Below, one piece after another: positions 5,213-29,453 of a stretch of DNA of 32,000 nt. Made by a program: the position numbers and the translations under genes. Where the stretch lies: contig JAJRVL010000004.1 of assembly GCA_024277355.1 (NCBI GenBank), positions 420,001-452,000 of the forward strand, in the 5' to 3' direction. The notes beneath the pieces are model-generated. The model worked only from the letters and a program-made list of their open reading frames with translations, had not been told where the DNA came from and ran no database searches. The stretch's first letter is position 1, and every line of letters begins with the position of its first letter. The stretch is from an archaeon. GTDB lineage: Archaea; Iainarchaeota; Iainarchaeia; Iainarchaeales; 1-14-0-10-31-34.

Positions 5213-7159
5213 ATGGAAAAAGATTTAGTTGTTTTATTAAAAGAAAAAAGAGTGTTTAAACCATCAAAAGAATTAATAGAAAATTCTAATGTAAAAAAAT
5301 GGATGAATAAACAGGGAATAAAAACTTATAATGAATTATTAGAAAAAGCAAAAGATATTGAATGGTTTTGGGAAGAAGCAGCAAAAGAAACAATTGAATG
5401 GAAAAAACCTTTTGATAAAGTTTTGGAATGGGAAAACCATTATGCTAACTGGTTTACTAAAGCACAATATAATATTGTATTTGATGCATTAGACAAGCAT
5501 AAAGATAAAGATAAAATTGCTTTTATCTGGGAAGGCGAACCAGAAGGAGAAATAGAAAAAATAAGCTATAAAAAATTATACAAAGAAGTAAATAAGTTAG
5601 CTAATGCAATGAAAACAATGGGAGTAAAAAAAGGAGACAGAGTAGGCATTTATTTACCAATGATTCCTGCTTTACCGATTTCAATGTTAGCTTGCGCTAA
5701 ACTTGGAGCAATTCATTCAATTGTTTTTTCTGGTTTTAGTGCTAATGCATTCAGAGAAAGAGTTAATGATGAAACAGCTAAATGGGTTGTAACTTGTGAT
5801 GGATTTTATCGAAGAGGAAAAATAATTCCATTAAAAAAAGCAGCAGATGAAGCATTATTAGAAACACCTTCAGTAGAAAAATGCATTGTATTCAAAAGAA
5901 CAGGAGAACAAGTTGAATGGAATGAAAAAAGAGATTTATGGTGGCATGAAATAACAGAAAAAGAATCAGATGAATGTGAAACAGAAATATTAGATTCAAA
6001 TGACACTTTATTTATTTTATATACTTCAGGCACAACAGGAAAACCAAAAGGAATAATTCACGATCACGGAGGATATGCAGTTGGAACAGCAATAACTTTG
6101 AAATGGGTTTTTGATTTAAAAGAAAATGATGTCTGGTGGTGTGCGGCTGATATTGGATGGATTACAGGACATAGTTACATTGTTTATGCTCCATTAATTT
6201 TAGGGGTTACTTCAGTAATGTATGAAGGTGCACCAAATTTCCCTGAAGCAGACAGATGGTGGGAAATAATTGACAGACATAAAATTTCAGTTTTATATAC
6301 TTCCCCAACTGCAATAAGAATGTTTATGCATTTTGGAGAAGAATGGATTGAAAAGCATGATTTAAGTTCTTTAAGATTATTAGGAAGCGTAGGAGAACCA
6401 ATTAATCCTGAAGCATGGATGTGGTATTACAAATATATTGGAAAAGAAAACTGCCAGATAATGGATACCTGGTGGCAGACTGAAACAGGAAACCATTGTA
6501 TTACTCCTTTGCCAATCACTGACTTAAAACCAGGTTCAGCAACAAAACCTTTCCCTGGAATTCAGGCAGATGTATTTAATAGAGAAGGAAAACCAATAGT
6601 TGACGCAGGCGGAGAACTTGTTTTATTAAAACCTTGGCCTGGAATGCTTAAAGGCATTTACAAAAATCCTGACAAATACCAGAAAACTTACTGGGAAATG
6701 TATCCAGAAGTTTATTTAGCCGGAGATGTTGCAAGAGTTGATTCAGATGGATATTTTTGGGTTCAGGGAAGAGATTCAGATGTATTAAAAGTTTCAGGAC
6801 ATAGAATAGGCAATTCAGAAATTGAATCAGCTTTAGTTTCTCATCCTTTAGTTGCAGAAGCAGCAGCAATAGGAAAACCACATGAAATTAAAGGAGAAAG
6901 CATTACTGCTTTTGTTATCTTAAAAAAAGGAACTGAAATTTCAGAAGAATTAAGAAAAGAATTAAGAGAACATGTAGGAAAAGAAATTGGAAAGCTTGCA
7001 AGACCAGATGAAATATTATTTGTTGAAGCCTTGCCTAAAACCCGAAGCGGAAAAATTATGAGAAGAGTAATCAAAGCAAAAGTTTTAGGAAAAGACACAG
7101 GAAATATTTCAACTTTAAGCAACCCAGAAGCAGTGGAAGAATTACTAAAAGCAAAATAA
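5213..7159 (+). CDS. acs: Acetyl-CoA synthetase (AMP-forming)
   Basis: A 648-aa ORF with the AMP-binding motif [11 protein letters not shown], plus WWQTETG and the C-terminal [20 protein letters not shown] Shine-Dalgarno sits upstream of the ATG. Confidence 0.95.
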
Positions 7160-12623: not shown

Positions 12624-13328
12624 ATGAATAAAATTTTAACTAAACAAAGAATTGAAAACTTAAATAAATTCAGGAACTTAATGAAAGAAGCAGTTAGTCA
12701 TATGATTGAAGAAGAGAAAAATCCTGCAGTTAAAGCAGCATATGAACGTACTTTGAAGAACATTGAGTCTGTTCCAATAAATTTTTTTCCTAAAAAAAAT
12801 TTAGTTCACGCCATATATAAAATTGGAAAACAAATTTTTACTTCTGAAGTTTTAGGAGAACACAAACAAGAAATAATTGTAATGAAAAAAGGAAAACAAA
12901 CTTTTGTTATAAGAGGAAAAAGAAATATTGATATTCCCTCAGAACATTTTTTTCATGAAAACAATTTAAACTGGCAGGGAATCCATACTTTAATGCATGA
13001 ATACTGTCATGATCCTGCAAGAAATGTATTAAAATTTTCTAATCAAATTCATTTAAATTCTGAACAAGCAGAAGAATTAATTGCAGATTTATTAAGTGCA
13101 AAAATTGCAAGAAAAATGGGAATGAACAAAGAAAGAGTTTTAAGTTTTTATCGTGGAAGACAAGGAGTTTACGGAAAATTTCCTTTTAAAGAAACATTAG
13201 AAAAAGCAATTAAACCAAAGAAAGGAAAAATTGAACCAATTACTCCAAAAAGGCCATTCAGAGAACTGGCAAAAAGAAAAAAAAGCAGAAAAATTACTTC
13301 AATTTATATGAGAAGAAAAGCTGCTTAA
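12624..13328 (+). CDS. Hypothetical protein with an HExxH motif and a basic C-terminal tail
   Basis: A 234-aa ORF with an AAGTGA SD-like sequence upstream. It contains IHTLMHEYCHDP followed by EQAEELIADLL, giving a possible third ligand (Glu). The tail is KPKKGKIEPITPKRPFRELAKRKKSRKITSIYMRRKAA. Confidence 0.5.
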   Translation: MNKILTKQRIENLNKFRNLMKEAVSHMIEEEKNPAVKAAYERTLKNIESVPINFFPKKNLVHAIYKIGKQIFTSEVLGEHKQEIIVMKKGKQTFVIRGKRNIDIPSEHFFHENNLNWQGIHTLMHEYCHDPARNVLKFSNQIHLNSEQAEELIADLLSAKIARKMGMNKERVLSFYRGRQGVYGKFPFKETLEKAIKPKKGKIEPITPKRPFRELAKRKKSRKITSIYMRRKAA

Positions 13329-13370
13329 AAAAAAAGCTGAGAGAGGGATTCGAACCCTCGATCTTCCGCT

Positions 13371-13473
13371 AACCGTGCTGACCTTGTTTTAATAAAAAAT
13401 TATGTGCAAATGCCTTTTTTCTTTTTGGGCAACTTGCACTTTTTCTTTTTCGGAAAAAAGAAAAAGGGCAGCG
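13371..13473 (-). other. tRNA-Cys intron (103 nt) with bulge-helix-bulge geometry
   Basis: The outer helix is intron GCUG(CC) with (GG-U)CAGC. The 5' bulge is A36-G37|C. The central 4-nt helix is C32-U33-G34-C35 against intron ACGG (3 pairs plus one C.A mismatch). The 3' bulge is UU|A38, followed by the anticodon stem. Spacing is therefore exactly 3-4-3. Confidence 0.7.
13411..13471. repeat. 61-bp repeat element, copy 1 (inside the tRNA-Cys intron)
   Basis: The sequence tgccttttttctttttgggcaacttgcactttttctttttcggaaaaaagaaaaagggcag is identical at 61/61 positions to 15624..15684 in the same orientation. The flanks are unrelated. Confidence 0.95.
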
Positions 13474-13535
13474 CTGCAGGCGGATGCATATCCTCTCTGC
13501 CACCTCAGCTTAATAGAAGAAAAGGCTTGAAAAAG

Positions 13536-13651: not shown

Positions 13652-14380
13652 ATGGGTTTAAGACCAGGAAGATGTTACAGACTGCAAAACAAAAGAGCCT
13701 TTACAAGGACAGCCGTTAAAGTACATAAAAGAAATTATATTGGCGCTACTCCTGGAATAAGAACAAGACAGTTTAATACTGGAAATCCATTAAGAAAATA
13801 TTCTCATGTTGTTGACTTAATTACAGATGAAAAAGTCCAAATAAGAGATAATTCATTAGAAGCAATAAGAATTGCAGTTAACAGAGATTTAACAAAAAAT
13901 GCAGGAAAAGAAAACTTTTTTTTAAGAATAAGAATTTATCCTTATCATATTTTAAGAGAAAACAAACAAGCTCAAGGAGCTGGAGCAGACAGAGTAACTA
14001 AAGGAATGAGTCATCCTTATGGAAAACCAATTGGAAGAGCTGCAAGAGTAAGAAAAGGACAAAAAATTTTAAGTTTGTTAGTTAATGAAGAACATTTAGA
14101 TGCAGCTAAAGACGCATTAAATAAAGCTAAACCAAAATTAACCTGTAAAATTTTAATTAAAGTTGGAACAGACATTGAAAGCATTGGAACTTTGCCAAAA
14201 AGAGTAAAAAGAAGAAAAGAAAAAGAAGAGAAAGAAGAAGCAGACAAAAAAGCAGAAGACGAAAAAGCAGGCGAAAAAGGCAAAGACGAAAAAAAAGATG
14301 ATAAAGGCAAAGAAGCAGACAAAAAAGACGATAAAGACAAAGACACAAAAAAAGACGACAAAACCGCCAAAAAAAAGTAA
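13652..14380 (+). CDS. rpl10e: 50S ribosomal protein L10e (uL16) with a long K/D/E-rich C-terminal extension
   Basis: The N-terminus MGLRPGRCYRLQNKRAFTRTAVKVHKRNYIGATPG and the later YPYHILRENKQAQGAGADRVTKGMSHPYGKPIGRAARV are characteristic of L10e. The last ~55 aa are low-complexity (KEKEEKEEADKKAEDEK...KKDDKTAKKK). Confidence 0.9.
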   Translation: MGLRPGRCYRLQNKRAFTRTAVKVHKRNYIGATPGIRTRQFNTGNPLRKYSHVVDLITDEKVQIRDNSLEAIRIAVNRDLTKNAGKENFFLRIRIYPYHILRENKQAQGAGADRVTKGMSHPYGKPIGRAARVRKGQKILSLLVNEEHLDAAKDALNKAKPKLTCKILIKVGTDIESIGTLPKRVKRRKEKEEKEEADKKAEDEKAGEKGKDEKKDDKGKEADKKDDKDKDTKKDDKTAKKK

Positions 14381-14408
14381 TTTAATTTAATTCTTTTATT
14401 ATTTGTTT

Positions 14409-15608
14409 ATGAATAAATATCTTTTTGTTTTAGGAAGAGATTCAGTTTTATCTTTTGCAGAAATCATTGTTTACTTAAAGAATAGAAACATTGAATTTGA
14501 AATAAATGCTAAAGAAGAAAACGCCGTATTAATTTCTTCAAGTAAACTTCCAGTAAAAAAATTAATGCATGATTTAGGCGGAACAATAAAAATAATTAAA
14601 ATTTTATTTGAAGGAAAAAATTTAAATGAATTATTAGAAAAAATAAAAGAAAAAGAATTAATTGAATGGATGAATGAAAAATTATGTTATTCATTGAATT
14701 TTTATGGAAAAGAATTCAAAGGAACAAAGTTATTAGAAAGATTTTTCAAACAAAAATTCAAGGAACTCAAAAAAAAAGCAGTATATAAAAAACCAAAAAA
14801 ACTGGAAAAACAGGAATCAAAAAAAATCAAAGATTTTAACAGTTCTCCTACTCAGGTTTATTCATGGAATTTAATTGAAGAACAAAGCGATTTTGTTTTT
14901 TTTAATTCAGAAAAATTTTATTTTGGATTAACTATTGAATGCTTTAATCCAAAAGAATTAAAACAAAGAGATGAAGAAAGACCAGAACAAAAAAAACTTC
15001 ATTCAATTTCTTTAAGGTTAGCGAGAATTTTAATTAATCTTTCAGGAGTAAAATCCAATCAAATTTTATTAGATCCTTTTTGCGGAATTGGAAGCATATT
15101 ACAGGAAGCAATGTTTAATGGAATTAATGTAATTGGAATTGAATTAGATAATAAAACATCTGGAATGGCAAGAAAAAATTTATCTGCTTTTGAAAAAAAA
15201 TATAAAACTGGAAAAACATGGAAAATAATTCAGGGAGATTCAGCTTTTATTAAAGAAACTTTAGAAGGCAAAAAATTTGATGCAATTGCTTCAGAGCCTT
15301 TTTTAGGGCCTTTAATTAAAAGAACTTTAAGAGAAAAAGAAGCAAAACCAATAATGTATGAATTAGAACAGCTTTATTTTAGTTTTTTCAAAAAACTTTC
15401 TTTTATTACAAGAAAACAAAGAATTGCAATTGTTCTTCCAGCTATAAAATGCACTAACGGAAGAATACTTCATTTAACTGAGAAAGTTTTTTCTCCTTAT
15501 TTTAAGTCAGTTAATCCTATAGCTAAATTTAATTCAAATGCTTTTCCTTTTAATTACATGGAAGAAAGTAAAATTAAAAGAAAAATTTATTTGCTGGAAA
15601 GAATTTAA
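14409..15608 (+). CDS. SAM-dependent RNA methyltransferase, Trm11/UPF0020-like (putative tRNA m2G methyltransferase)
   Basis: It has SAM motif I LLDPFCGIGSILQEA and a motif IV-like ASEPFLGP. The N-terminal YLFVLGRDSVLSFAEI is typical of TRM11-family proteins. I chose the ATG at 14409 rather than the TTG at 14403. Confidence 0.6.
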   Translation: MNKYLFVLGRDSVLSFAEIIVYLKNRNIEFEINAKEENAVLISSSKLPVKKLMHDLGGTIKIIKILFEGKNLNELLEKIKEKELIEWMNEKLCYSLNFYGKEFKGTKLLERFFKQKFKELKKKAVYKKPKKLEKQESKKIKDFNSSPTQVYSWNLIEEQSDFVFFNSEKFYFGLTIECFNPKELKQRDEERPEQKKLHSISLRLARILINLSGVKSNQILLDPFCGIGSILQEAMFNGINVIGIELDNKTSGMARKNLSAFEKKYKTGKTWKIIQGDSAFIKETLEGKKFDAIASEPFLGPLIKRTLREKEAKPIMYELEQLYFSFFKKLSFITRKQRIAIVLPAIKCTNGRILHLTEKVFSPYFKSVNPIAKFNSNAFPFNYMEESKIKRKIYLLERI

Positions 15609-15623
15609 TTTATTTTTTTACAT

Positions 15624-15684
15624 TGCCTTTTTTCTTTTTGGGCAACTTGCACTTTTTCTTTTTCGGAAAAAAGAAAAAGGGCAG
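15624..15684. repeat. 61-bp repeat element, copy 2 (intergenic, between the methyltransferase gene and ppsA)
   Basis: It is identical at 61/61 positions to 13411..13471. It lies 15 nt after the upstream stop and 48 nt before the ppsA ATG. Confidence 0.95.
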
Positions 15685-15732
15685 AGCCATTAAACTTAAT
15701 AATAAGTTTCTTCTTTTCTTTAATAGATTTAA

Positions 15733-19903: not shown

Positions 19904-19993
19904 TTTCAGTCAATAATAACAACATAGAACAAGTATAAAAAGATATTTTTTCTTAAATATTAAAGCACTAATTTTAAATTAAAAGTGAGAAAA

Positions 19994-22720
19994 ATGGCAG
20001 ATGAATCAATAGAAATTTTCAGAAAAAAACTAAAAAAATTAAAGAAATTTAAAGGAAGAGGAACAGAATTAATTAGTTTATATATTCCTGAAAATGCAGA
20101 CAGAAGTTCAGTGATGAATCAAATCACAGAAGAAATGAGCCAGAGTGCAAACATTAAAAGTCCTCAGACAAGAAAAAATGTTCAGGGAGCACTAAGAAAA
20201 CTAAATACTTTTTTAAAAAACATTAATTTTAAGATTCCAAAAAACGGATTAGTTTTATTTTGCGGAAATGTAAGTGAAACAGAAGGAAGAAATGACATTA
20301 AATTAATTCCATTAAATCCAATTAAAGAATTAAAAACAAAATTATACTGGTGTGATTCTTCTTTTCATTTAACTCCATTAGAAGAAATGCAGAAAACAAA
20401 AGAAGTTTATGCTTTAATTGTATTAGATAAAAGAGAAGCAACAGTTGCATTGCTTAAAGGAAAAAGCTATGAAATTATAGGGCATTTTACTTCAAATGTT
20501 GCAGGAAAAACAAGAGCAGGAGGGCAATGCCTTTCTCCTGAAACACTAATTCAGTTAAATGACGGTTTAATTATTCCAATAAAAAACTCACATAACCCTT
20601 TACAAGTAAAAAGCATGGATTTTGAAAACTATTCATTCACTGATTCAAACATAAAAGATAAATGGAAAACAAAAAAAAGTGTTTATAAAATAATAACAAA
20701 AAACCCAAGAACAGAAATTGTTTGTTCAAAAGACCATTTATTTTTTACTGCAGGAAAAGAAATTAAAGAAAAACCTGCTGAAAAACTAAAAATTGGAGAT
20801 CAATTATTAATGCCTGAAAAAGTTGAAATTAAAGGCAAACCCCAAAAACTTGAATCATTTGACTGCTTTAATTCATATAACATTACAGACAAAGGAAAAA
20901 CTAATTTAATTAATGCAAGAAAAAAAACCGGTTTTTCTCAAAAAGAATTTGGAAAAAAAATAGGGATAACCCAAACAGGAGTTTCAGTTATTGAATTAGG
21001 AAAAAGTAATATAAGAAAAAGTCTGCTTGAAAAATTATGCTTTGAATTGAATATTGATTTTGAAAATTTTATTAAAATACATGCAAAACCTAATTCAGAT
21101 TTGTTTATGCCAAAAAAATTAACAAAAGAACTGGCAAAAATAATGGGTTATTTTGCTGGAGACGGAAGTTTTGAAAAAGAAAGAATAAGTTTTTCAGAGC
21201 AAAGCAAAGAGCTTGCAGAATACTATAAAAGCAAGACATCAAAACTTTTTAAAGCAAATAATGCAGTAAAATTCAGAGAAAACAAAGGTTATTATCAAAT
21301 AAGAATTTATGGAAAACCTATTGTTAAGTTTATTGAAAAAAATTTTCCTGAAATAAAAAAAGCAATAAACAGCGAAATACCAATAAAAATATTAAAATCA
21401 GAAAACGAAGTTTTAGCTTCTTTTATTAAAGGGTTTTATGATGCAGAAGGTTATGCAACAACAAAAAGAGGGATTGGATTAGGAATAAACAATAAAATAA
21501 TGGCTGAACAGATTAGACTTTCACTTTTAAGATTTGGAATTATTTCTTCTTTGCATGAATATGATAACAGAAGAAATCCTTATTCAGATAATCCAAGATT
21601 TACTGTTGACATTTCAGACAATAAATCACTAAAATTGTTTTCAAAGTTAATTGGGTTTAGTTTAAAAAGAAAAAAAGAAAAAATGGAAAAACTAATTAAA
21701 AACAGAAAACACATTAGAAGCAATGTAAGACAGATATTTACTTCAGGAAAAAAAATCAGAAAAATAATTGAAGAACATGACTGCAACTTAGAGTTGTTTC
21801 CTAAAGTAAACAGTTTTTTCAGGAATGAAAGACAAATGAGCAAAAAAGTGTTTGCTGAGTCAATTCTTGATTGCATTAAAGATAAAAAATTAAAAGGAAA
21901 ACTCAAAAAAATAATGAATATTCCTTTAATTCCAGTAAAAATAAATAAAATAATTAAATCAAATAAAAAAATAAGTTTGGTTGATATTAGTGTGTCAAAC
22001 CAGAATTTTATTGCAAATGGATTAATAGTTCACAATAGCGCACATAGATTTGAACGATTAAGAGAAGAAGCAACCCAGGAATTTTTTAAAAGAACAAGCG
22101 AAAAAATTAACGGAATTTTTTCTGAACACAAAGAAAATTTAAGGGGAGTAATTATTGGCGGTCCTGGAATAACAAAAAATAAGTTTATGGAAAAAGATGT
22201 ATTAGATTACAGGTTAAAAGAAAAAATTATAGGAACATTAGATACATCTTATACTGATGAATCAGGAATAAGAGAAATGATTCAGAAAGCAGAAGACTTA
22301 CTAAAAAATACTGCTTTAATGAAAGAAAGAATTTTATTAACTAAATTTCTGGAAGAAATAGTTAAAGATGGAGCAGTAACTTACGGAGAAAAAGAAGTAA
22401 TGGAATCCTTGGAAATAGGAAAAGCAGAAACTGTTTTATTATCTGAAGGCATTGAATGGACTGCAATAAAATTCCAGTGTACTTCCTGCAATAATATTGA
22501 AGAAACCGTAATTAAAGACGGAAAAAAACCTAAATTAAAATGCAGTAAATGCAGTTCAACTAAAATTGAAGAATTAGAGGATTTAGAGTTTGCTGAATTT
22601 TTAGAAGAAAAAGCAAAAGTTACTGGCGCTAAAATTGAAGTTATTTCAGTTGAAACAATTGAAGGCGAACAATTTCTTAAAGGATTTGGCGGAATCGGCG
22701 CTTTCTTAAGATATAAATAA
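19994..22720 (+). CDS. prf1: Peptide chain release factor aRF1, interrupted by an intein
   Basis: The exteins carry NIKS (SANIKSPQTRKN), YxCxxxF (LYWCDSSFHL) and GGQ (KTRAGGQ|intein|SAHRFERLREE). Extein length is 178 + 227 = 405 aa, normal for aRF1. I chose the ATG at 19994 over the GTG at 19985. Confidence 0.9.
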   Translation: MADESIEIFRKKLKKLKKFKGRGTELISLYIPENADRSSVMNQITEEMSQSANIKSPQTRKNVQGALRKLNTFLKNINFKIPKNGLVLFCGNVSETEGRNDIKLIPLNPIKELKTKLYWCDSSFHLTPLEEMQKTKEVYALIVLDKREATVALLKGKSYEIIGHFTSNVAGKTRAGGQCLSPETLIQLNDGLIIPIKNSHNPLQVKSMDFENYSFTDSNIKDKWKTKKSVYKIITKNPRTEIVCSKDHLFFTAGKEIKEKPAEKLKIGDQLLMPEKVEIKGKPQKLESFDCFNSYNITDKGKTNLINARKKTGFSQKEFGKKIGITQTGVSVIELGKSNIRKSLLEKLCFELNIDFENFIKIHAKPNSDLFMPKKLTKELAKIMGYFAGDGSFEKERISFSEQSKELAEYYKSKTSKLFKANNAVKFRENKGYYQIRIYGKPIVKFIEKNFPEIKKAINSEIPIKILKSENEVLASFIKGFYDAEGYATTKRGIGLGINNKIMAEQIRLSLLRFGIISSLHEYDNRRNPYSDNPRFTVDISDNKSLKLFSKLIGFSLKRKKEKMEKLIKNRKHIRSNVRQIFTSGKKIRKIIEEHDCNLELFPKVNSFFRNERQMSKKVFAESILDCIKDKKLKGKLKKIMNIPLIPVKINKIIKSNKKISLVDISVSNQNFIANGLIVHNSAHRFERLREEATQEFFKRTSEKINGIFSEHKENLRGVIIGGPGITKNKFMEKDVLDYRLKEKIIGTLDTSYTDESGIREMIQKAEDLLKNTALMKERILLTKFLEEIVKDGAVTYGEKEVMESLEIGKAETVLLSEGIEWTAIKFQCTSCNNIEETVIKDGKKPKLKCSKCSSTKIEELEDLEFAEFLEEKAKVTGAKIEVISVETIEGEQFLKGFGGIGAFLRYK
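20528..22036 (+). mobile_element. Intein (503 aa) with a LAGLIDADG homing-endonuclease domain and an XRE-like HTH segment
   Basis: It starts with Cys1 (CLSPETLIQLNDG), has a block-B-like SKDHLFF and ends ...NGLIVHN, followed by the +1 Ser. The two LAGLIDADG motifs are LAKIMGYFAGDGSF and ASFIKGFYDAEGY. An HTH_3-like stretch, KKTGFSQKEFGKKIGITQTGVSVIELGKSN, lies between the N-terminal splicing region and the endonuclease. Confidence 0.85.
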
Positions 22721-26507: not shown

Positions 26508-26565
26508 ATACTATAAAAATTAGGCAAAATAATTTAAAATAAAACTATACTGTAAGCTGAATTAA

Positions 26566-26602
26566 AATAAAAAAAAAAGAAAAAGGGTAGGATTAACCTA
26601 CC
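26566..26602 (-). terminator. Hairpin plus T-run downstream of the S-layer gene
   Basis: The minus strand reads GGTAGG-TTAAT-CCTACC followed by CTTTTTCTTTTTTTTTT, beginning 10 nt after the stop codon. Confidence 0.55.
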
Positions 26603-26612
26603 TTTGTTTTAT

Positions 26613-29453
26613 TTACAAGTTTTCTATTGCGTCGATTAATTCTTGTGCTGCTGAACCTGTGTCAGATCCGGTGTATCCTGCAACAACTATGTCTCCTGTG
26701 CTGGTTTTTTCAGCAACATAGTCTCCTGTTTTGGTTAACTTTGATTTCAAAGTTGAACCGTCTGCAAGAGTTACTCCTTCAGCCAATTTGTTGACTTTCC
26801 ATGCACCAACAATTACGTGTGTTGCTGCTGATGGATTTACGTCATCTACTACAAGGTTTCTTGCAGTTAATGGCTGCATATAAGTTGTTGGAGTTACACT
26901 ACAGCTTCCTGTACCGGTTCCTGTTCCGCCACCACAAGTTGCATTATAGTTGACTTTTGTTACAGTGACTCTTGTTCCGCCAGTAGTACTTCCTGTTTCG
27001 CCTTCAGCTACAGTTAAGTCTTCTCCGCCTGAAACAGTTGTAGTTGTTCCTGTTCCTGAGATTAAAACTTCTGCTTGAGGTCTGTTTTCTGGTAAGGTAA
27101 TTTTATATTTGTGGTCGTTTAGTTCAATTTTTGAACCAAAGTCAGTGTATGCTGTTGAAGGATAAGTTGAAGTAGTGCTTTCGCTGACGAATTTTGCTCC
27201 GCCGTTATAGTCTCCTTCTGCAGTATAGGTACTTAATTGAGTGTTTGGTAATGCAATTAAGTTACCTGTTCCTGTGTCAACATAGAAGTTCATGTCGTCA
27301 ACTGAGTCTTCATCCTGGTCAATCTGGAACATTGCAACAAAGTATTCGTTTGAGTTGTAGTTTGCGTCACCTTCCATTAAGGCAGGCAAATACTGGCTGT
27401 GTGGCAAGTAGAATCCATAGTTGTTTATTCCTGCTTGTGTTTGGGTCATTCCACCACTTGTAAAGTTTTGGTCTTCTGTTGTGTCGGTTCCTACAAAGTC
27501 CCATCTTTTACTGTATTGGATGGTTTTTGTTTGTGCATCAAAGAATAACCATAGTCTTGATGTTGAACCGATTTCATCAACCATTACTTCATAGTCGTGT
27601 GTTACTGAACTGGCACCTTCAAAGCTGATTGCTGCATTGTTTCCATAGTTCTGGTCAACATAGTAGAATTCCTGTATTAAGGTTCCACTTGAAGTGTCTT
27701 TTCTGAAAGTGACGTTTCCGTCTGCTGTCAAATAAACACCTGTGTTTGCATCATCAATTCCTGAAACTAAGAACTGCATTCCGTTAATGTCAATTCTTTG
27801 TCCAACGTTAACATCTGTTCCGTTAATTTTTACGTTGTTTCCAGTAAGAGTTGTGCCTGTTGCTGGAGAACTGTTTGCGTCTGTTACAAAAACTAATTCT
27901 CCGTTGATGTAGTTCTGGTCACCAATAAGGTCGTACTTTGTTCCTGAACCGTCTGCTGAAGTGCTTGCAAACAAGTTTGAGTCTGTTGAGTTAAGTTTAT
28001 ACCAGATTGTTTTTCCGTCAATTGTAGTTGTGTCGGTTGATTCGTCTGACATAGACTGGCTCAAGACATACAAAGGAACTGTGTGGTCTGCTTCATAAGT
28101 TGAATCCTTATATTTTAAGTTTCCGTCTTCTAAGCTTACAACAGTTGTTATTTCTGTTTTTGACACTCCGGTAAATTCAGGTAACTGAAGTCCAAGGAAT
28201 TTAAGTGTTCCTAAGTCTTCTGGGAATTTTGCTTCTTGTCCTACAAGTAATGCATCAGTTCCAACAAAGTCATAAGTTGACTTGTTTGTAATGTTTACAT
28301 CTACAAGATAGTTTGTGTCGCTTCCTCCCCATCCTAATTTTACAGTCCAATCATAGTCGTCGTCTGTTTTAGTTGAGTCAAAAGGATATCCTTTGTCATT
28401 CTTTAGTAAGATTCTTGCGTTTCCTACTAAGATTGTTGGTGTATAAACATCTACATCTGATACAGTTGTTTTTAGGATTTCGCTTATGTTAACTAAAGTA
28501 CTTAGAACTGCTTGTCCTGTGTCATCACTGTAAAATACTACGTCTCCTGCTGGAAAGTTTTCGGATTTTACTAAGGTTCCATCTTCTTTGTATAAAGCCA
28601 AAGTGATTTTGTTTGTTGAACCTACTACTCCTCCTCTTCCTACTTCAACATAGTATTTTTCTCCGTCATAACCTTCTAAATCGGTTATTCTGTCTCCTTC
28701 ACTGTATTGTTTTTCGCCTGATGTTTTGATTAATTCAACCTGACTTGAAGTAACGCTTTTGACTAAATAGTCTGATCCAAAGAATGGAATTCTAACGTTA
28801 TCATTTGCGTCATCAGCAAAGTTTGTTGCTACAGTCATTGCATCATATCTTGGAATTCCTGAACCTAAGTTCAAGTTATATTTCAAGTTATTTGTTGCAA
28901 TTTCTGCTACTAATGCTTTGTTTGTTACGTCATCAAACTTTACGTCTGCAGTAAAGTAAAGTCTTTCTTGGATTGCTGTAGTGTATTGTGTTCCATTATA
29001 AGTGTATGATTTTGAACCATTGTAATATAATGATGGAACATTTGATTCACTTACTGACTGGTTGTTGAAGTTTGCTTCCTGTCCAACTGAGTCTGAACTC
29101 ATGTTGTTGAAAAAGGTTTTTCCTCCTGAGACAGTGGTTGTTCCTCCAACACTTAAGTCAACAGTTAAACCATCAACTGATGGAGTTGCTCCTCCGGAAC
29201 AGTCTGCTGTACCTACTGCAACTTGTTTTTCTGTATAGGCTTTTTGTCCTATTGCTACTGCAATATTTCCTGCCCATACTGCGTCGCTTACAGATGCTTT
29301 TTTACCAACAACAACATCTACTTTGACTCCTGAATCAGAAACTAAATCTGATTTGTCCAAAGAGATTGCTGAAGCCATTGGTGCTAAAGCAGAACCAACT
29401 AATGCTGCTCCTGCTGCAATTGCTGCAAGCTTTTTTATGTTAAGATTTCTCAT
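26613..29453 (-). CDS. S-layer protein (Methanococcales-type S_layer_N/S_layer_C architecture)
   Basis: A 946-aa ORF with the signal peptide MRNLNIKKLAAIAAGAALVGSALAPMASA. N-terminal VDVVVGKKASVSDAVWAGNIAVAIG and C-terminal HVIVGAWKVNKLAEG...IVVAGYTGSDT resemble archaeal S-layer end domains. The protein is T/S/G/N/D-rich with about 13 N-x-S/T sequons and has no C-terminal TM or PGF-CTERM. A strong SD is present. The gene is visibly GC-richer than its neighbours. Confidence 0.75.
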   Translation of the reverse strand: MRNLNIKKLAAIAAGAALVGSALAPMASAISLDKSDLVSDSGVKVDVVVGKKASVSDAVWAGNIAVAIGQKAYTEKQVAVGTADCSGGATPSVDGLTVDLSVGGTTTVSGGKTFFNNMSSDSVGQEANFNNQSVSESNVPSLYYNGSKSYTYNGTQYTTAIQERLYFTADVKFDDVTNKALVAEIATNNLKYNLNLGSGIPRYDAMTVATNFADDANDNVRIPFFGSDYLVKSVTSSQVELIKTSGEKQYSEGDRITDLEGYDGEKYYVEVGRGGVVGSTNKITLALYKEDGTLVKSENFPAGDVVFYSDDTGQAVLSTLVNISEILKTTVSDVDVYTPTILVGNARILLKNDKGYPFDSTKTDDDYDWTVKLGWGGSDTNYLVDVNITNKSTYDFVGTDALLVGQEAKFPEDLGTLKFLGLQLPEFTGVSKTEITTVVSLEDGNLKYKDSTYEADHTVPLYVLSQSMSDESTDTTTIDGKTIWYKLNSTDSNLFASTSADGSGTKYDLIGDQNYINGELVFVTDANSSPATGTTLTGNNVKINGTDVNVGQRIDINGMQFLVSGIDDANTGVYLTADGNVTFRKDTSSGTLIQEFYYVDQNYGNNAAISFEGASSVTHDYEVMVDEIGSTSRLWLFFDAQTKTIQYSKRWDFVGTDTTEDQNFTSGGMTQTQAGINNYGFYLPHSQYLPALMEGDANYNSNEYFVAMFQIDQDEDSVDDMNFYVDTGTGNLIALPNTQLSTYTAEGDYNGGAKFVSESTTSTYPSTAYTDFGSKIELNDHKYKITLPENRPQAEVLISGTGTTTTVSGGEDLTVAEGETGSTTGGTRVTVTKVNYNATCGGGTGTGTGSCSVTPTTYMQPLTARNLVVDDVNPSAATHVIVGAWKVNKLAEGVTLADGSTLKSKLTKTGDYVAEKTSTGDIVVAGYTGSDTGSAAQELIDAIENL

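Follow-up and report, generated by a model that had tools for sequence, protein, structure and literature searches.

A dispersed three-arm element in a tRNA-Cys intron of a DPANN archaeon carries the sequence signature of an intrastrand triple helix

How does a tRNA intron come to share 61 nucleotides, without a single difference, with a spacer between two protein genes? This question is raised by a 32,000-nt stretch of an archaeal genome (assembly GCA_024277355.1, contig JAJRVL010000004.1, positions 420,001 to 452,000), referred to as the window in the following. The 61-mer TGCCTTTTTTCTTTTTGGGCAACTTGCACTTTTTCTTTTTCGGAAAAAAGAAAAAGGGCAG has exactly two matches there, with 0 mismatches and on the same strand, one in the intron of a tRNA-Cys gene and one starting 15 nt past the stop codon of a Trm11-like methyltransferase gene (14403-15608). 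No third copy was found in the window at up to 3 mismatches, and the chance expectation from dinucleotide shuffles is 0.00. Extended by 3 nt to the right the two copies are 63/64 identical, and the flanks beyond are unrelated. As stated in the initial annotation of this DNA, this is a discrete element and not a segmental duplication. Here we describe the family to which it belongs, the parallel register of its three arms, which points to a triple helix, and the conservation, gain and loss, and placement of its members. The window features concerned are:

13411..13471, + strand: element copy 1, exact 61-mer, inside the tRNA-Cys intron and antisense to the tRNA
15624..15684, + strand: element copy 2, solo copy, exact 61-mer in the same orientation as copy 1
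13335..13509, - strand: tRNA-Cys(GCA) gene with 5' exon 13474-13509, intron 13371-13473 (103 nt) and 3' exon 13335-13370 (Rfam RF00005, 43.5 bits; ARAGORN intron mode i(39,103); constrained fold)
13415..13426, + strand: arm 1, TTTTTTCTTTTT (T6CT5), preceded by CC; proposed Hoogsteen third strand, parallel to arm 3
13427..13439, + strand: conserved 13-nt centre GGGCAACTTGCAC, linker between arms 1 and 2; its 3' part CTTGCAC pairs with the terminal GGGCAG
13439..13450, + strand: arm 2, CTTTTTCTTTTT, Watson-Crick partner of arm 3; 12-bp hairpin in the minimum free energy fold of both strands
13451..13453, + strand: hairpin loop CGG(A), from the fold; variable among family members (CGG, AGG, GCG, CGCG, CCT and others)
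13454..13466, + strand: arm 3, AAAAAAGAAAAAG (A6GA5G), purine strand used by both pairings
13467..13471, + strand: G+C end GGCAG (CUGCC in the tRNA sense), 2 nt from the 5' exon; outer helix of the bulge-helix-bulge (BHB) motif with 13377-13384 in the constrained fold

On the + strand the layout of copy 1 is 5'-Y(Hoogsteen)-Y(Watson-Crick)-R-3'. Three features described initially are confirmed in copy 1, namely a 12-bp hairpin whose loop is CGGA, pairing of the two ends at 15/16 positions and the palindrome GCAAcTTGC, and the two copies are the only homopyrimidine/homopurine hairpins of at least 8 bp in the window.

Searches in other genomes revealed that the element belongs to a family. The central 23-mer was found, as an exact match, in 9 contigs of 5 DPANN metagenome-assembled genomes (MAGs) when one genome per species was scanned; these are labelled Micrarchaeota, Aenigmatarchaeota, Diapherotrites or 'archaeon', the taxonomy of the hosts being that of MAG titles and source names. 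A metagenome scan anchored solely on TTTTTGGGCA...AAAAAGGGCAG returned 109 stretches. About 45 of them are true members, defined by a centre of the form GGGCA-N-CTT-R-M-AC, and the rest are unrelated coding matches. The ~45 copies represent 36 distinct sequences of ~55-65 nt on Micrarchaeota-like DPANN contigs (loci denoted by L numbers), and their density was estimated at ~1 per 8-15 kb from the syntenic loci compared. Since the host contigs span 30-52% G+C, the A/T-rich arms are not a by-product of base composition. The centre varies (TTACAC, TTGAAC, CCTGCAC), as does the 5' end (TGCC, AACC, TTCC, GCGG and others). The flanks show no consensus at either end of the copies, and a sequence-specific target site was accordingly rejected. 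A viral origin was likewise rejected, as three scans of viral contigs yielded no family member.

Evidence for the nature of the element comes from the arms of these members. In the notation used here arm 1 is TmCTn and runs up to GGGCA, arm 2 is TnCTm, and arm 3 is AmGAn and runs up to GGGCAG. Arms 2 and 3 are reverse complements of each other, and arm 1 complements arm 3 when both are read in one direction. Of the 36 distinct members, n1=n3 holds in 32, m1=m3 in 29 and both in 26, and n2=n3 holds in all but three. Where arm 3 is asymmetric the exact parallel signature is found in 22 of 32 members and the antiparallel one in 0 of 32, and a permutation test in which arm 1 was shuffled among the sequences reached the observed counts in 0 of 20000 cases. 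The matched arms fall into the (m,n) classes (2,5), (3,5), (4,5), (5,5), (6,5), (3,6), (4,6) and (5,7), in addition to a class with internal CTC/GAG. Variants with two C/G positions (L051, L060, L016/L056) keep both in the parallel register, and members with other centres (L066+2443, L087+446, L096+3374, L032+1562) follow the same rule. Furthermore, orthologous copies changed all three arms together, as seen from L023 to L066 (n from 5 to 7) and between L122 and the window at both sites.

This register speaks for a third (Hoogsteen) strand lying on the hairpin of arms 2 and 3. A third strand is the known cause of such symmetry, and it is favoured because no copying mechanism yields an unreversed complement and because a protein that reads the duplex would not equate mirror images. 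As read from the sequences, the arms bear the signature of a triple helix of the pyrimidine motif formed within a single strand. Variation is also seen at the hairpin base: CTTGCAC occurs with GGGCAG and CCTGCAC only with GGGCGG, and mixed forms were not seen. If position 24 pairs with position 60, this is a U-A to C-G exchange; the lack of mixed forms is probably due to a small number of independent events.

The three arms had initially been taken for mutually exclusive hairpins and the ends for a 16-bp terminal inverted repeat. A switch between the arm 1/arm 3 and arm 2/arm 3 hairpins, or a classical miniature inverted-repeat transposable element (MITE) with terminal inverted repeats, is very improbable in the light of the family. 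In the window arm 1 indeed pairs with arm 3 at 15/16 positions, and the centroid fold of the + strand uses this pairing; the repeat is apparent there because T6CT5 is nearly symmetric. Nevertheless, none of the 32 asymmetric variants has the antiparallel arm 1/arm 3 relation, and the terminal TGCC/GGCA is not conserved (AACC, TTCC or GCGG in other members). Diverged copies, in which co-variation in favour of one or both hairpins was to be looked for, show it for arm 2/arm 3, and for arm 1/arm 3 they show the parallel register instead.

No class of annotated feature was initially thought to explain the element. This was too strong, since BoxC, PIT and TMECO are objects of the same kind. These are short intergenic bacterial repeats of unknown function that vary between close strains (Hoyne et al. 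2000; Holder et al. 2015, PMC4666352). Like them, the element is a multi-copy repeat with three consecutive homopurine/homopyrimidine blocks on one strand, one of which pairs with the other two by Watson-Crick and (reverse) Hoogsteen bonds; it occurs in both orientations, and its loci differ between close relatives. In the nomenclature of PMC4666352 class IV is Hoogsteen-pyrimidine-purine and class II is pyrimidine-purine-reverse-Hoogsteen, the latter forming in DNA and not in RNA. The + strand of the element has the class IV, pyrimidine-motif layout (T6CT5 / T5CT5 / A6GA5, with the parallel register in 26/36 members), and the minus strand has the class II (Y-R-R) layout, a division between strands that is shared with the bacterial repeats.

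The element differs from BoxC/PIT/TMECO in several respects. Those repeats are proteobacterial or cyanobacterial, whereas the element is found in DPANN archaea. It is A/T-rich (T5-6CT5-6) and TMECO is G/C-rich (CCCTCNCCC); it has no sequence homology to BoxC/PIT/TMECO, and it does not match the TMECO consensus CCCTCNCCC-N3-6-GGGNGAGGG-N3-GGGNGAGGG, so that it is of the same kind as TMECO and not a member. Unlike the bacterial repeats it has a G+C clamp, sites in tRNA introns and an rRNA insertion, and contacts to the ends of RNA genes. Its hairpin loop has 3-4 nt and its conserved linker 13 nt, compared to loops of 3-6 nt in BoxC/PIT/TMECO and to limits of 0-10 nt (Hoyne et al.) and 1-6 nt (ITxF) applied to short-loop triplexes. 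Because of this linker the ITxF settings would miss the element.

The reading that we favour, and that as a whole we think somewhat likelier to be right than wrong, is that the element is an archaeal, A/T-rich counterpart of BoxC/PIT/TMECO, a dispersed repeat of DPANN archaea and a mobile intron core, whose fold may matter in single-stranded DNA (ssDNA) or independently of the strand. On the + strand arms 2 and 3 would form a 12-bp Watson-Crick hairpin, arm 1 would lie parallel to the purine arm in the major groove with ~11 T(U).A-T(U) triples and one C+.G-C triple, and the G+C stem CTTGCAC / GGGCAG would clamp the base. On the complementary strand the layout is the corresponding one of the purine motif and could be used in DNA only, and in ssDNA each strand would have its own triplex. 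The element would act in single-stranded nucleic acid, and a role that is exerted in ssDNA or is independent of the strand is favoured because copies occur in both transcriptional orientations. Such independence would be accounted for most simply by a fold that matters in ssDNA or for the propagation of the element.

The intron that houses copy 1 has the features of an archaeal tRNA intron. Default ARAGORN missed the tRNA-Cys gene, which was recovered by its intron mode and by Rfam. The insert lies at the canonical 37/38 position, and the joined exons restore the cloverleaf (43.5 bits). Two nucleotides separate the 5' splice site from the element, which in the tRNA sense begins with intron nt 3 and supplies 61 of the 103 intron nucleotides, as noted initially. 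Folding of the precursor with the cloverleaf enforced resulted in a relaxed BHB in which the central helix has 3 bp and one mismatch, the bulges have 3 nt each and the outer helix, GCUG(C)CCU / AGG(U)CAGC, has 7 bp. The CUGCC of the element is part of this outer helix, as had been proposed, and its partner lies further inside the intron:

13377..13384, - strand: intron segment AGGUCAGC, pairs with (G)CUGCCU of the element to form the BHB outer helix

Between the window and L043 GGTCAGCAYGGTT is kept, and the remaining intron diverged. Introns with two copies are 145-165 nt long, and in those of L120 and L123 the inverted copies pair over the whole length from the exon junctions. A C/D box small RNA was not found in the intron, as C (RUGAUGA) and D (CUGA) boxes are absent and no Rfam family matches over the element, either at the gathering threshold or at E<=10. 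A split tRNA, with the 5' half ended by the element and the 3' half expressed from its own promoter, was rejected, since only 18-26 nt separate the element from the 3' exon elsewhere; the window also lacks a TATA-like box at the right distance. In L122 (2043-3547) a tyrosine-recombinase (Phage_integrase) gene and small helix-turn-helix (HTH) genes lie immediately next to the 3' end of tRNA-Cys. They replace the upstream genes of the window and probably represent an element integrated at tRNA-Cys.

Conservation was examined at orthologous sites. Four further syntenic loci were obtained through Trm11 homologues (61-71% protein identity), and all four are ~75-79% identical to the window at the DNA level. 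Over the 61 nt of the tRNA-Cys intron copy (2 linker and 59 element nucleotides) L043 and L120 match the window at 61/61 and L121 and L123 at 59/61 positions, and the remaining intron diverged freely in each of these introns. The intron copy of L122 has the arms T4CTCT3 / T3CTCT4 / A4GAGA3 and another centre, with the parallel rule kept. The structure-bearing sequence is under strong constraint, and selection would seem to keep the fold itself.

Orthologous sites also show that copies are gained and lost, with exact ends. Besides the window, L043/L063 and L122 contain copy 2 (in L122 with the arms T4CT3CT3 / T3CT3CT4 / A4GA3GA3). L120 and L121 lack it; there no element separates the Trm11 gene from the conserved promoter block GCATTA..TTAATAATAA, which comes after a 22-nt spacer in L120 and directly after the stop codon in L121. 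In the filled sites this block begins right behind GGGCAG. A second site is empty in the window and filled in a relative:

15685..15732, + strand: conserved block of promoter-like sequence before ppsA (AGCCATTAAACTTAATAATAAG...), defining the exact right-hand junction of copy 2 (alignment of the Trm11-ppsA spacer from the window, L043, L120, L121 and L122)
26508..26612, no strand assigned: empty site; the orthologous spacer in L005/L052 (JAHJUD01) holds a 61-nt member between TTTTTAT and TTTAAATTA (alignment; blastn synteny)

At the 3' end of the tRNA-Cys intron a second, inverted copy is found in L120, L122 and L123 and is missing in the window, L043 and L121. L123 has in addition a degenerate copy between two convergent genes that lie 3 nt apart in the window. 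Variable presence, multiple copies and small size are also features of MITEs, and the initial suggestion that a mobile element either inserted into a tRNA intron or gave rise to one, or that it is a mobile intron core, fits these data. At the empty site the S-layer-like gene of the window (minus strand, 26613-29453) is followed by a G+C hairpin and a long T-tract (GGTAGGTTAATCCTACC-CTTTTTCTTTTTTTTTT, 26583-26605), a bacterial-style intrinsic terminator of which few other window genes show the like; L005 has a different hairpin (GGAGGCTTAGCCTC) at the end of this gene, which suggests a compensatory change.

Two further explanations of the window pair, a chance two-copy duplication or the attL and attR sites of an element integrated between the copies, have a negligible probability in view of these comparisons. 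The copies are direct repeats 2213 nt apart, and copy 1 overlaps a tRNA gene. The interval, however, holds the genes for ribosomal protein L10e and the Trm11-like methyltransferase, in a synteny conserved with relatives that lack copy 2, and no tRNA fragment or remnant lies beside copy 2, so that an integrated element was rejected. A chance duplication is contradicted by the dozens of family copies elsewhere, in tRNA introns and between genes.

Functional units are always contacted through the G+C end (GGGCAG / CUGCC) of a copy, at the following distances, and one further copy lies within an rRNA insertion:

1-3 nt after the 5' splice site: Cys, Ser-TGA, Glu-TTC, Asn and L100 ('Pyl', anticodon ambiguous), in ARAGORN-predicted introns
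0-3 nt before the 3' splice site, in the opposite orientation: L021, L032, L049, L120, L122, L123
0-5 nt from tRNA 3' ends: 8 tRNAs
0 nt from the 3' end of an archaeal RNase P RNA: L062
0 nt from the 5' end of tRNA-Val: L082
0-2 nt from a TAA stop codon: 6 protein genes, one of them for an Alba homologue (recognised by eye) whose C-terminus is intact
directly adjoining a promoter block: copy 2 (the conserved ppsA block) and L005
one further copy, inside a ~92-nt insertion in a 23S rRNA hairpin loop: L084:828-919, around model position 1675

Altogether the family core was found in ARAGORN-predicted introns of Cys, Ser-TGA, Glu-TTC, Asn, Trp, Gln and the one 'Pyl' call. Within introns the G+C end faces the exon because it pairs with a short complement or with the end of a second, inverted copy to form the outer helix. 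Genes running toward the arm 1 end stop 5-190 nt away, and no RNA gene abuts this end. A promoter role was rejected, since the TATA-like boxes lie behind the element and not inside it. Inspection by eye of element-flanked tRNAs and RNase P RNA revealed neither a BHB nor a leader-trailer pairing around them. The RNase P RNA of L062 (763-1160, 122 bits) ends exactly where the CTGCCC end of the element begins, and an extra partial unit (CTTTTTCTTTTCTT-CCAGCAACTTGCC) lies left of arm 1; similar tandem partial units are present in L003, L009 and L082. In L084 a second 23S rRNA insertion of ~100 nt lies nearby.

Several related arrangements were noted beyond the family as defined above. The predicted introns L019:13389-13555, L087:361-513, L049:2357-2582 and L021:5303-5635 (Ser-GCT, Gln, Asn) begin with three-arm elements of unrelated centres, e.g. 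UGUUACGUUAUCCC and GUCUACAGUCUAUCC, which suggests a wider superfamily; a predicted 258-nt intron of L021 lies at the non-canonical position 35/36. In L024 (2260-2330), L086 (775-844) and L091 (minus strand, reverse-complement coordinates 5735-5799) a variant with arm 1 reduced to T5 and a hairpin of T5-6 plus G-C pairs lies in frame (57 nt, 19 codons) within three different archaeal genes for prepilin-like proteins, in the part that encodes the N-terminal signal peptide. Direct repeats of 14-21 nt bound it; they end in AAAAAGGGCAG, and the ..K-G-Q encoded there is the cleavage motif of class III signal peptides, as in MASKKINQKGQ-[NPKGIFGQLTLFGENQKGQ]-AAVTDALFF. A coding role of the element was rejected, as no ORF runs across either window copy and these three variant copies are the only ones in frame.

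A position behind genes could indicate a bidirectional transcription terminator or insulator, whose T-tracts on both strands would stop RNA polymerase coming from either side. With E as the element and arrowheads as its neighbouring genes, the solo copies lie in the arrangements >E> (10), <E< (8), >E< (4) and <E> (2), so that nearly all follow at least one gene. Moreover, genes that enter the G+C end (tRNA, RNase P RNA, protein) meet T5CT5-6 within 6-10 nt, and other tRNAs are followed by a plain T-run. This explanation is nevertheless improbable. The same orientation occurs inside single-copy tRNA introns and 23S rRNA, where termination would be lethal, and genes upstream of the element often have their own T7 run, or a G+C hairpin and T-tract, before it. 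An intrinsic terminator would be a G+C-rich hairpin followed by a T-run; here the T-runs lie inside the hairpin, none follows it on either strand, and a terminator scan does not call the element. T5+ runs are also frequent on the coding sense strands of the window (143 in 29.5 kb), and the co-variation in mirror register and the conserved centre would be left unexplained. On the same strands 403 A5+ runs were counted, and many window genes have no T5+ run within 60 nt of the stop codon. It is unlikely that plain oligo-T is a general termination signal of this organism.

The independence from orientation would also fit a role at the level of double-stranded DNA, either as an H-DNA-type mirror repeat or as a protein site for chromatin, replication or recombination. 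Arms 1 and 2 form a homopyrimidine mirror repeat with the potential for T.A-T and C+.G-C triples, as in H-DNA, the centre is near-palindromic, and bacterial triplex repeats have been linked to genome instability (PMC4666352). We regard such a role as decidedly improbable. H-DNA needs the mirror repeat alone, so that the third, inverted arm would be unexplained, and halves of 12 nt are short for extrusion; the element supplies all three triplex strands from one strand, with no duplex partner and no leftover single strand. A protein that reads the duplex would not treat mirror-image arms as equal. The central palindrome noted initially is real in the window copy and is broken in about one third of the members (TTACAC variants; 11/35 distinct members).

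A role in RNA ranks second. In this alternative a U.A-U triple helix on the + strand would cap an RNA end against exonucleases or mark a processing boundary, as the ENE (element for nuclear expression) and MALAT1 do. The pyrimidine motif is possible in RNA and the purine motif is not (PMC4666352). In MALAT1, MEN-beta and PAN two U-rich strands clamp a genomically encoded A-rich tract, and in MALAT1 a single C+.G-C triple is found among the U.A-U triples (PMC4836648, PMC8457004). The element has the same layout (U-rich, U-rich, A-rich) in triplex register on the + strand, including the one C+.G-C triple. In L082 alone a tRNA follows directly, as mascRNA follows MALAT1, and RNase P cleavage at the 5' end of this tRNA-Val would place the triplex at the 3' end of an RNA. 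Among the intron copies, six are in sense orientation and stop 0-3 nt short of the 3' splice site; copy 2, like 9 further solo copies, follows a gene in the sense direction, and the orthologous conservation is strong.

Such a role in RNA is nevertheless unlikely as the general explanation. L082 and the copies at 3' splice sites would fit an ENE-like 3'-end location. In about 60% of the copies, however, copy 1 among them, the one transcript known (tRNA, RNase P RNA, 23S rRNA or mRNA) runs in the opposite sense. Antisense copies would give Y-R-R RNA, which forms no such triplex, yet the three-arm co-variation is kept, and the RNA of a two-copy intron would rather form one long hairpin. The element is known here from DNA and has no homology to ENE and MALAT1, and in contrast to these its Watson-Crick strand and A-tract make a simple hairpin with a 3-4-nt loop. 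At E<=10 neither the ENE and MALAT1 covariance models nor any other Rfam family matched it. Further details of ENE and MALAT1 have reportedly been worked out by Brown, Wilusz, Steitz and co-workers.

Several points also weigh against the reading of the element as a dispersed triplex repeat, which we favour. Triplex formation is predicted from co-variation in the sequences. The 13-nt linker between arms 1 and 2 exceeds the loops of studied intrastrand triplexes (1-6 nt searched in PMC4666352), A/T-rich purine-motif triplexes are weak, and the pyrimidine motif requires one protonated C. The hints on the strand disagree: CC ahead of arm 1 and GG ahead of arm 3 tend to occur together (9/10 vs 3/13), which favours the + strand and also a role in RNA, whereas the common TTACAC variant gives A.C on the + strand and, on the minus strand, G.U. 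In addition, T5/A5, GGGCA and GGGCAG were imposed by the search patterns, and the members are related by descent, so that the counts overstate the number of independent events. As to mobility, no target-site duplication was found at the compared gain and loss sites, including the L005 insertion and copy 2, the family has no conserved terminal repeat, and no transposase, HUH nuclease or integrase lies near the window copies, whose neighbours are housekeeping genes. Finally, near-perfect orthologous conservation over ~23% genome divergence argues for a local function over a purely selfish passenger.

Short mobile repeats provide further comparisons. With repetitive extragenic palindromic (REP) sequences, bacterial interspersed mosaic elements (BIMEs) and MITEs the element shares its nature as a short, structured, non-coding spacer repeat at gene ends in both orientations, the inverted pairs (two-copy introns look like a MITE hairpin) and the presence or absence between relatives. 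It lacks the GTAG tetranucleotide of REP/BIME, and a comparison of the 13 window proteins with Pfam, in which transposase-like genes were sought, revealed none that resembles a REP-associated tyrosine transposase (RAYT) or another transposase. Conserved terminal inverted repeats and target duplications, as in MITEs, are absent, and the third arm in mirror register is not shared with either group.

With regard to introns, the 'transposed' tRNA introns of Thermoproteales are the closest case. Very similar introns occur there in different isoacceptors, implying gain by copying, by a mechanism that is not known (work of 2010, reviewed in PMC4090602). The element likewise provides a near-identical core to differently assigned tRNAs. 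It differs in phylum and sequence, in its presence outside introns (gene ends, spacers, rRNA, prepilin gene), in its three-arm architecture and in the constant end that is turned toward the exon.

In our favoured reading the family would consist of insertion elements with exact ends, presumably propagated by an enzyme and gained or lost at orthologous sites. Copies would persist where they are harmless, either in spacers or where RNA processing removes them. The G+C end, together with a short complement or a second inverted copy, would provide the BHB outer helix, and the splicing endonuclease would remove the whole insert from the tRNA. Copy 1 would then be the intron-building passenger of tRNA-Cys, and copy 2 would stand alone between the stop codon of one gene and the promoter of the next.

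The genes around the two copies are mostly those of housekeeping functions. The window has a G+C content of ~28% and shares 75-79% DNA identity with contigs of the MAG JAHJUD01 ('Candidatus Micrarchaeota') and with several contigs from metagenomes. It encodes ribosomal protein L10e, the Trm11-like tRNA methyltransferase, phosphoenolpyruvate synthase (ppsA), Dph2, geranylgeranyl reductase, ThiI and TruD, as well as an S-layer protein and aRF1 with an intein. L10e (13652-14380, 242 aa) has a Lys/Glu/Asp-rich C-terminal tail of ~65 residues, which accounts for the purine-rich low-complexity repeats reported by a repeat finder. The gene 12624-13328 encodes a protein with a zincin-like metallopeptidase domain (PF18818, below the gathering threshold) and ends 6 nt from the tRNA-Cys gene on the opposite strand; its transcript would therefore run antisense into the tRNA. 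The gene of aRF1 (19985-22720, 911 aa) includes the intein, which contains a LAGLIDADG homing endonuclease and an HTH domain. The intein is present in L122 and missing in the L120/L121 orthologues (404-407 aa). A ppsA intein is present in L121 (1312 aa) and not in the window (796 aa).

As a tentative extension, which we consider possible and would not yet call probable, the element could be a natural archaeal helix of 11-13 triples and at the same time an intron-making mobile element that turns intron-less tRNA and rRNA genes into intron-containing ones, with an ENE/MALAT1-like 3' cap in the + sense. Insertion of a single copy or an inverted pair would suffice for this, as the G+C ends would create an outer helix that is cut by a splicing endonuclease of broad specificity.

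To our knowledge, long triple helices kept by selection are known from MALAT1/MEN-beta, from viral and transposon ENEs and from bacterial BoxC/TMECO, and no archaeal case was found in the literature searched. Such helices are rare, and the ~36 natural variants with three co-varying strands provide a test set. The same ~60-nt unit occurs in introns of at least 7 differently assigned tRNAs and in a 23S rRNA insertion. For annotation this means that default tRNA finders miss such genes and that the element may be mistaken for a terminator or a small RNA. The finding also bears on the origin of archaeal tRNA introns and on 'intron transposition', for which there is no known mechanism. Because the family offers solo, gene-end and intron copies, filled and empty sites and a constant exon-facing end, a model in which insertion creates the intron would be directly testable here.

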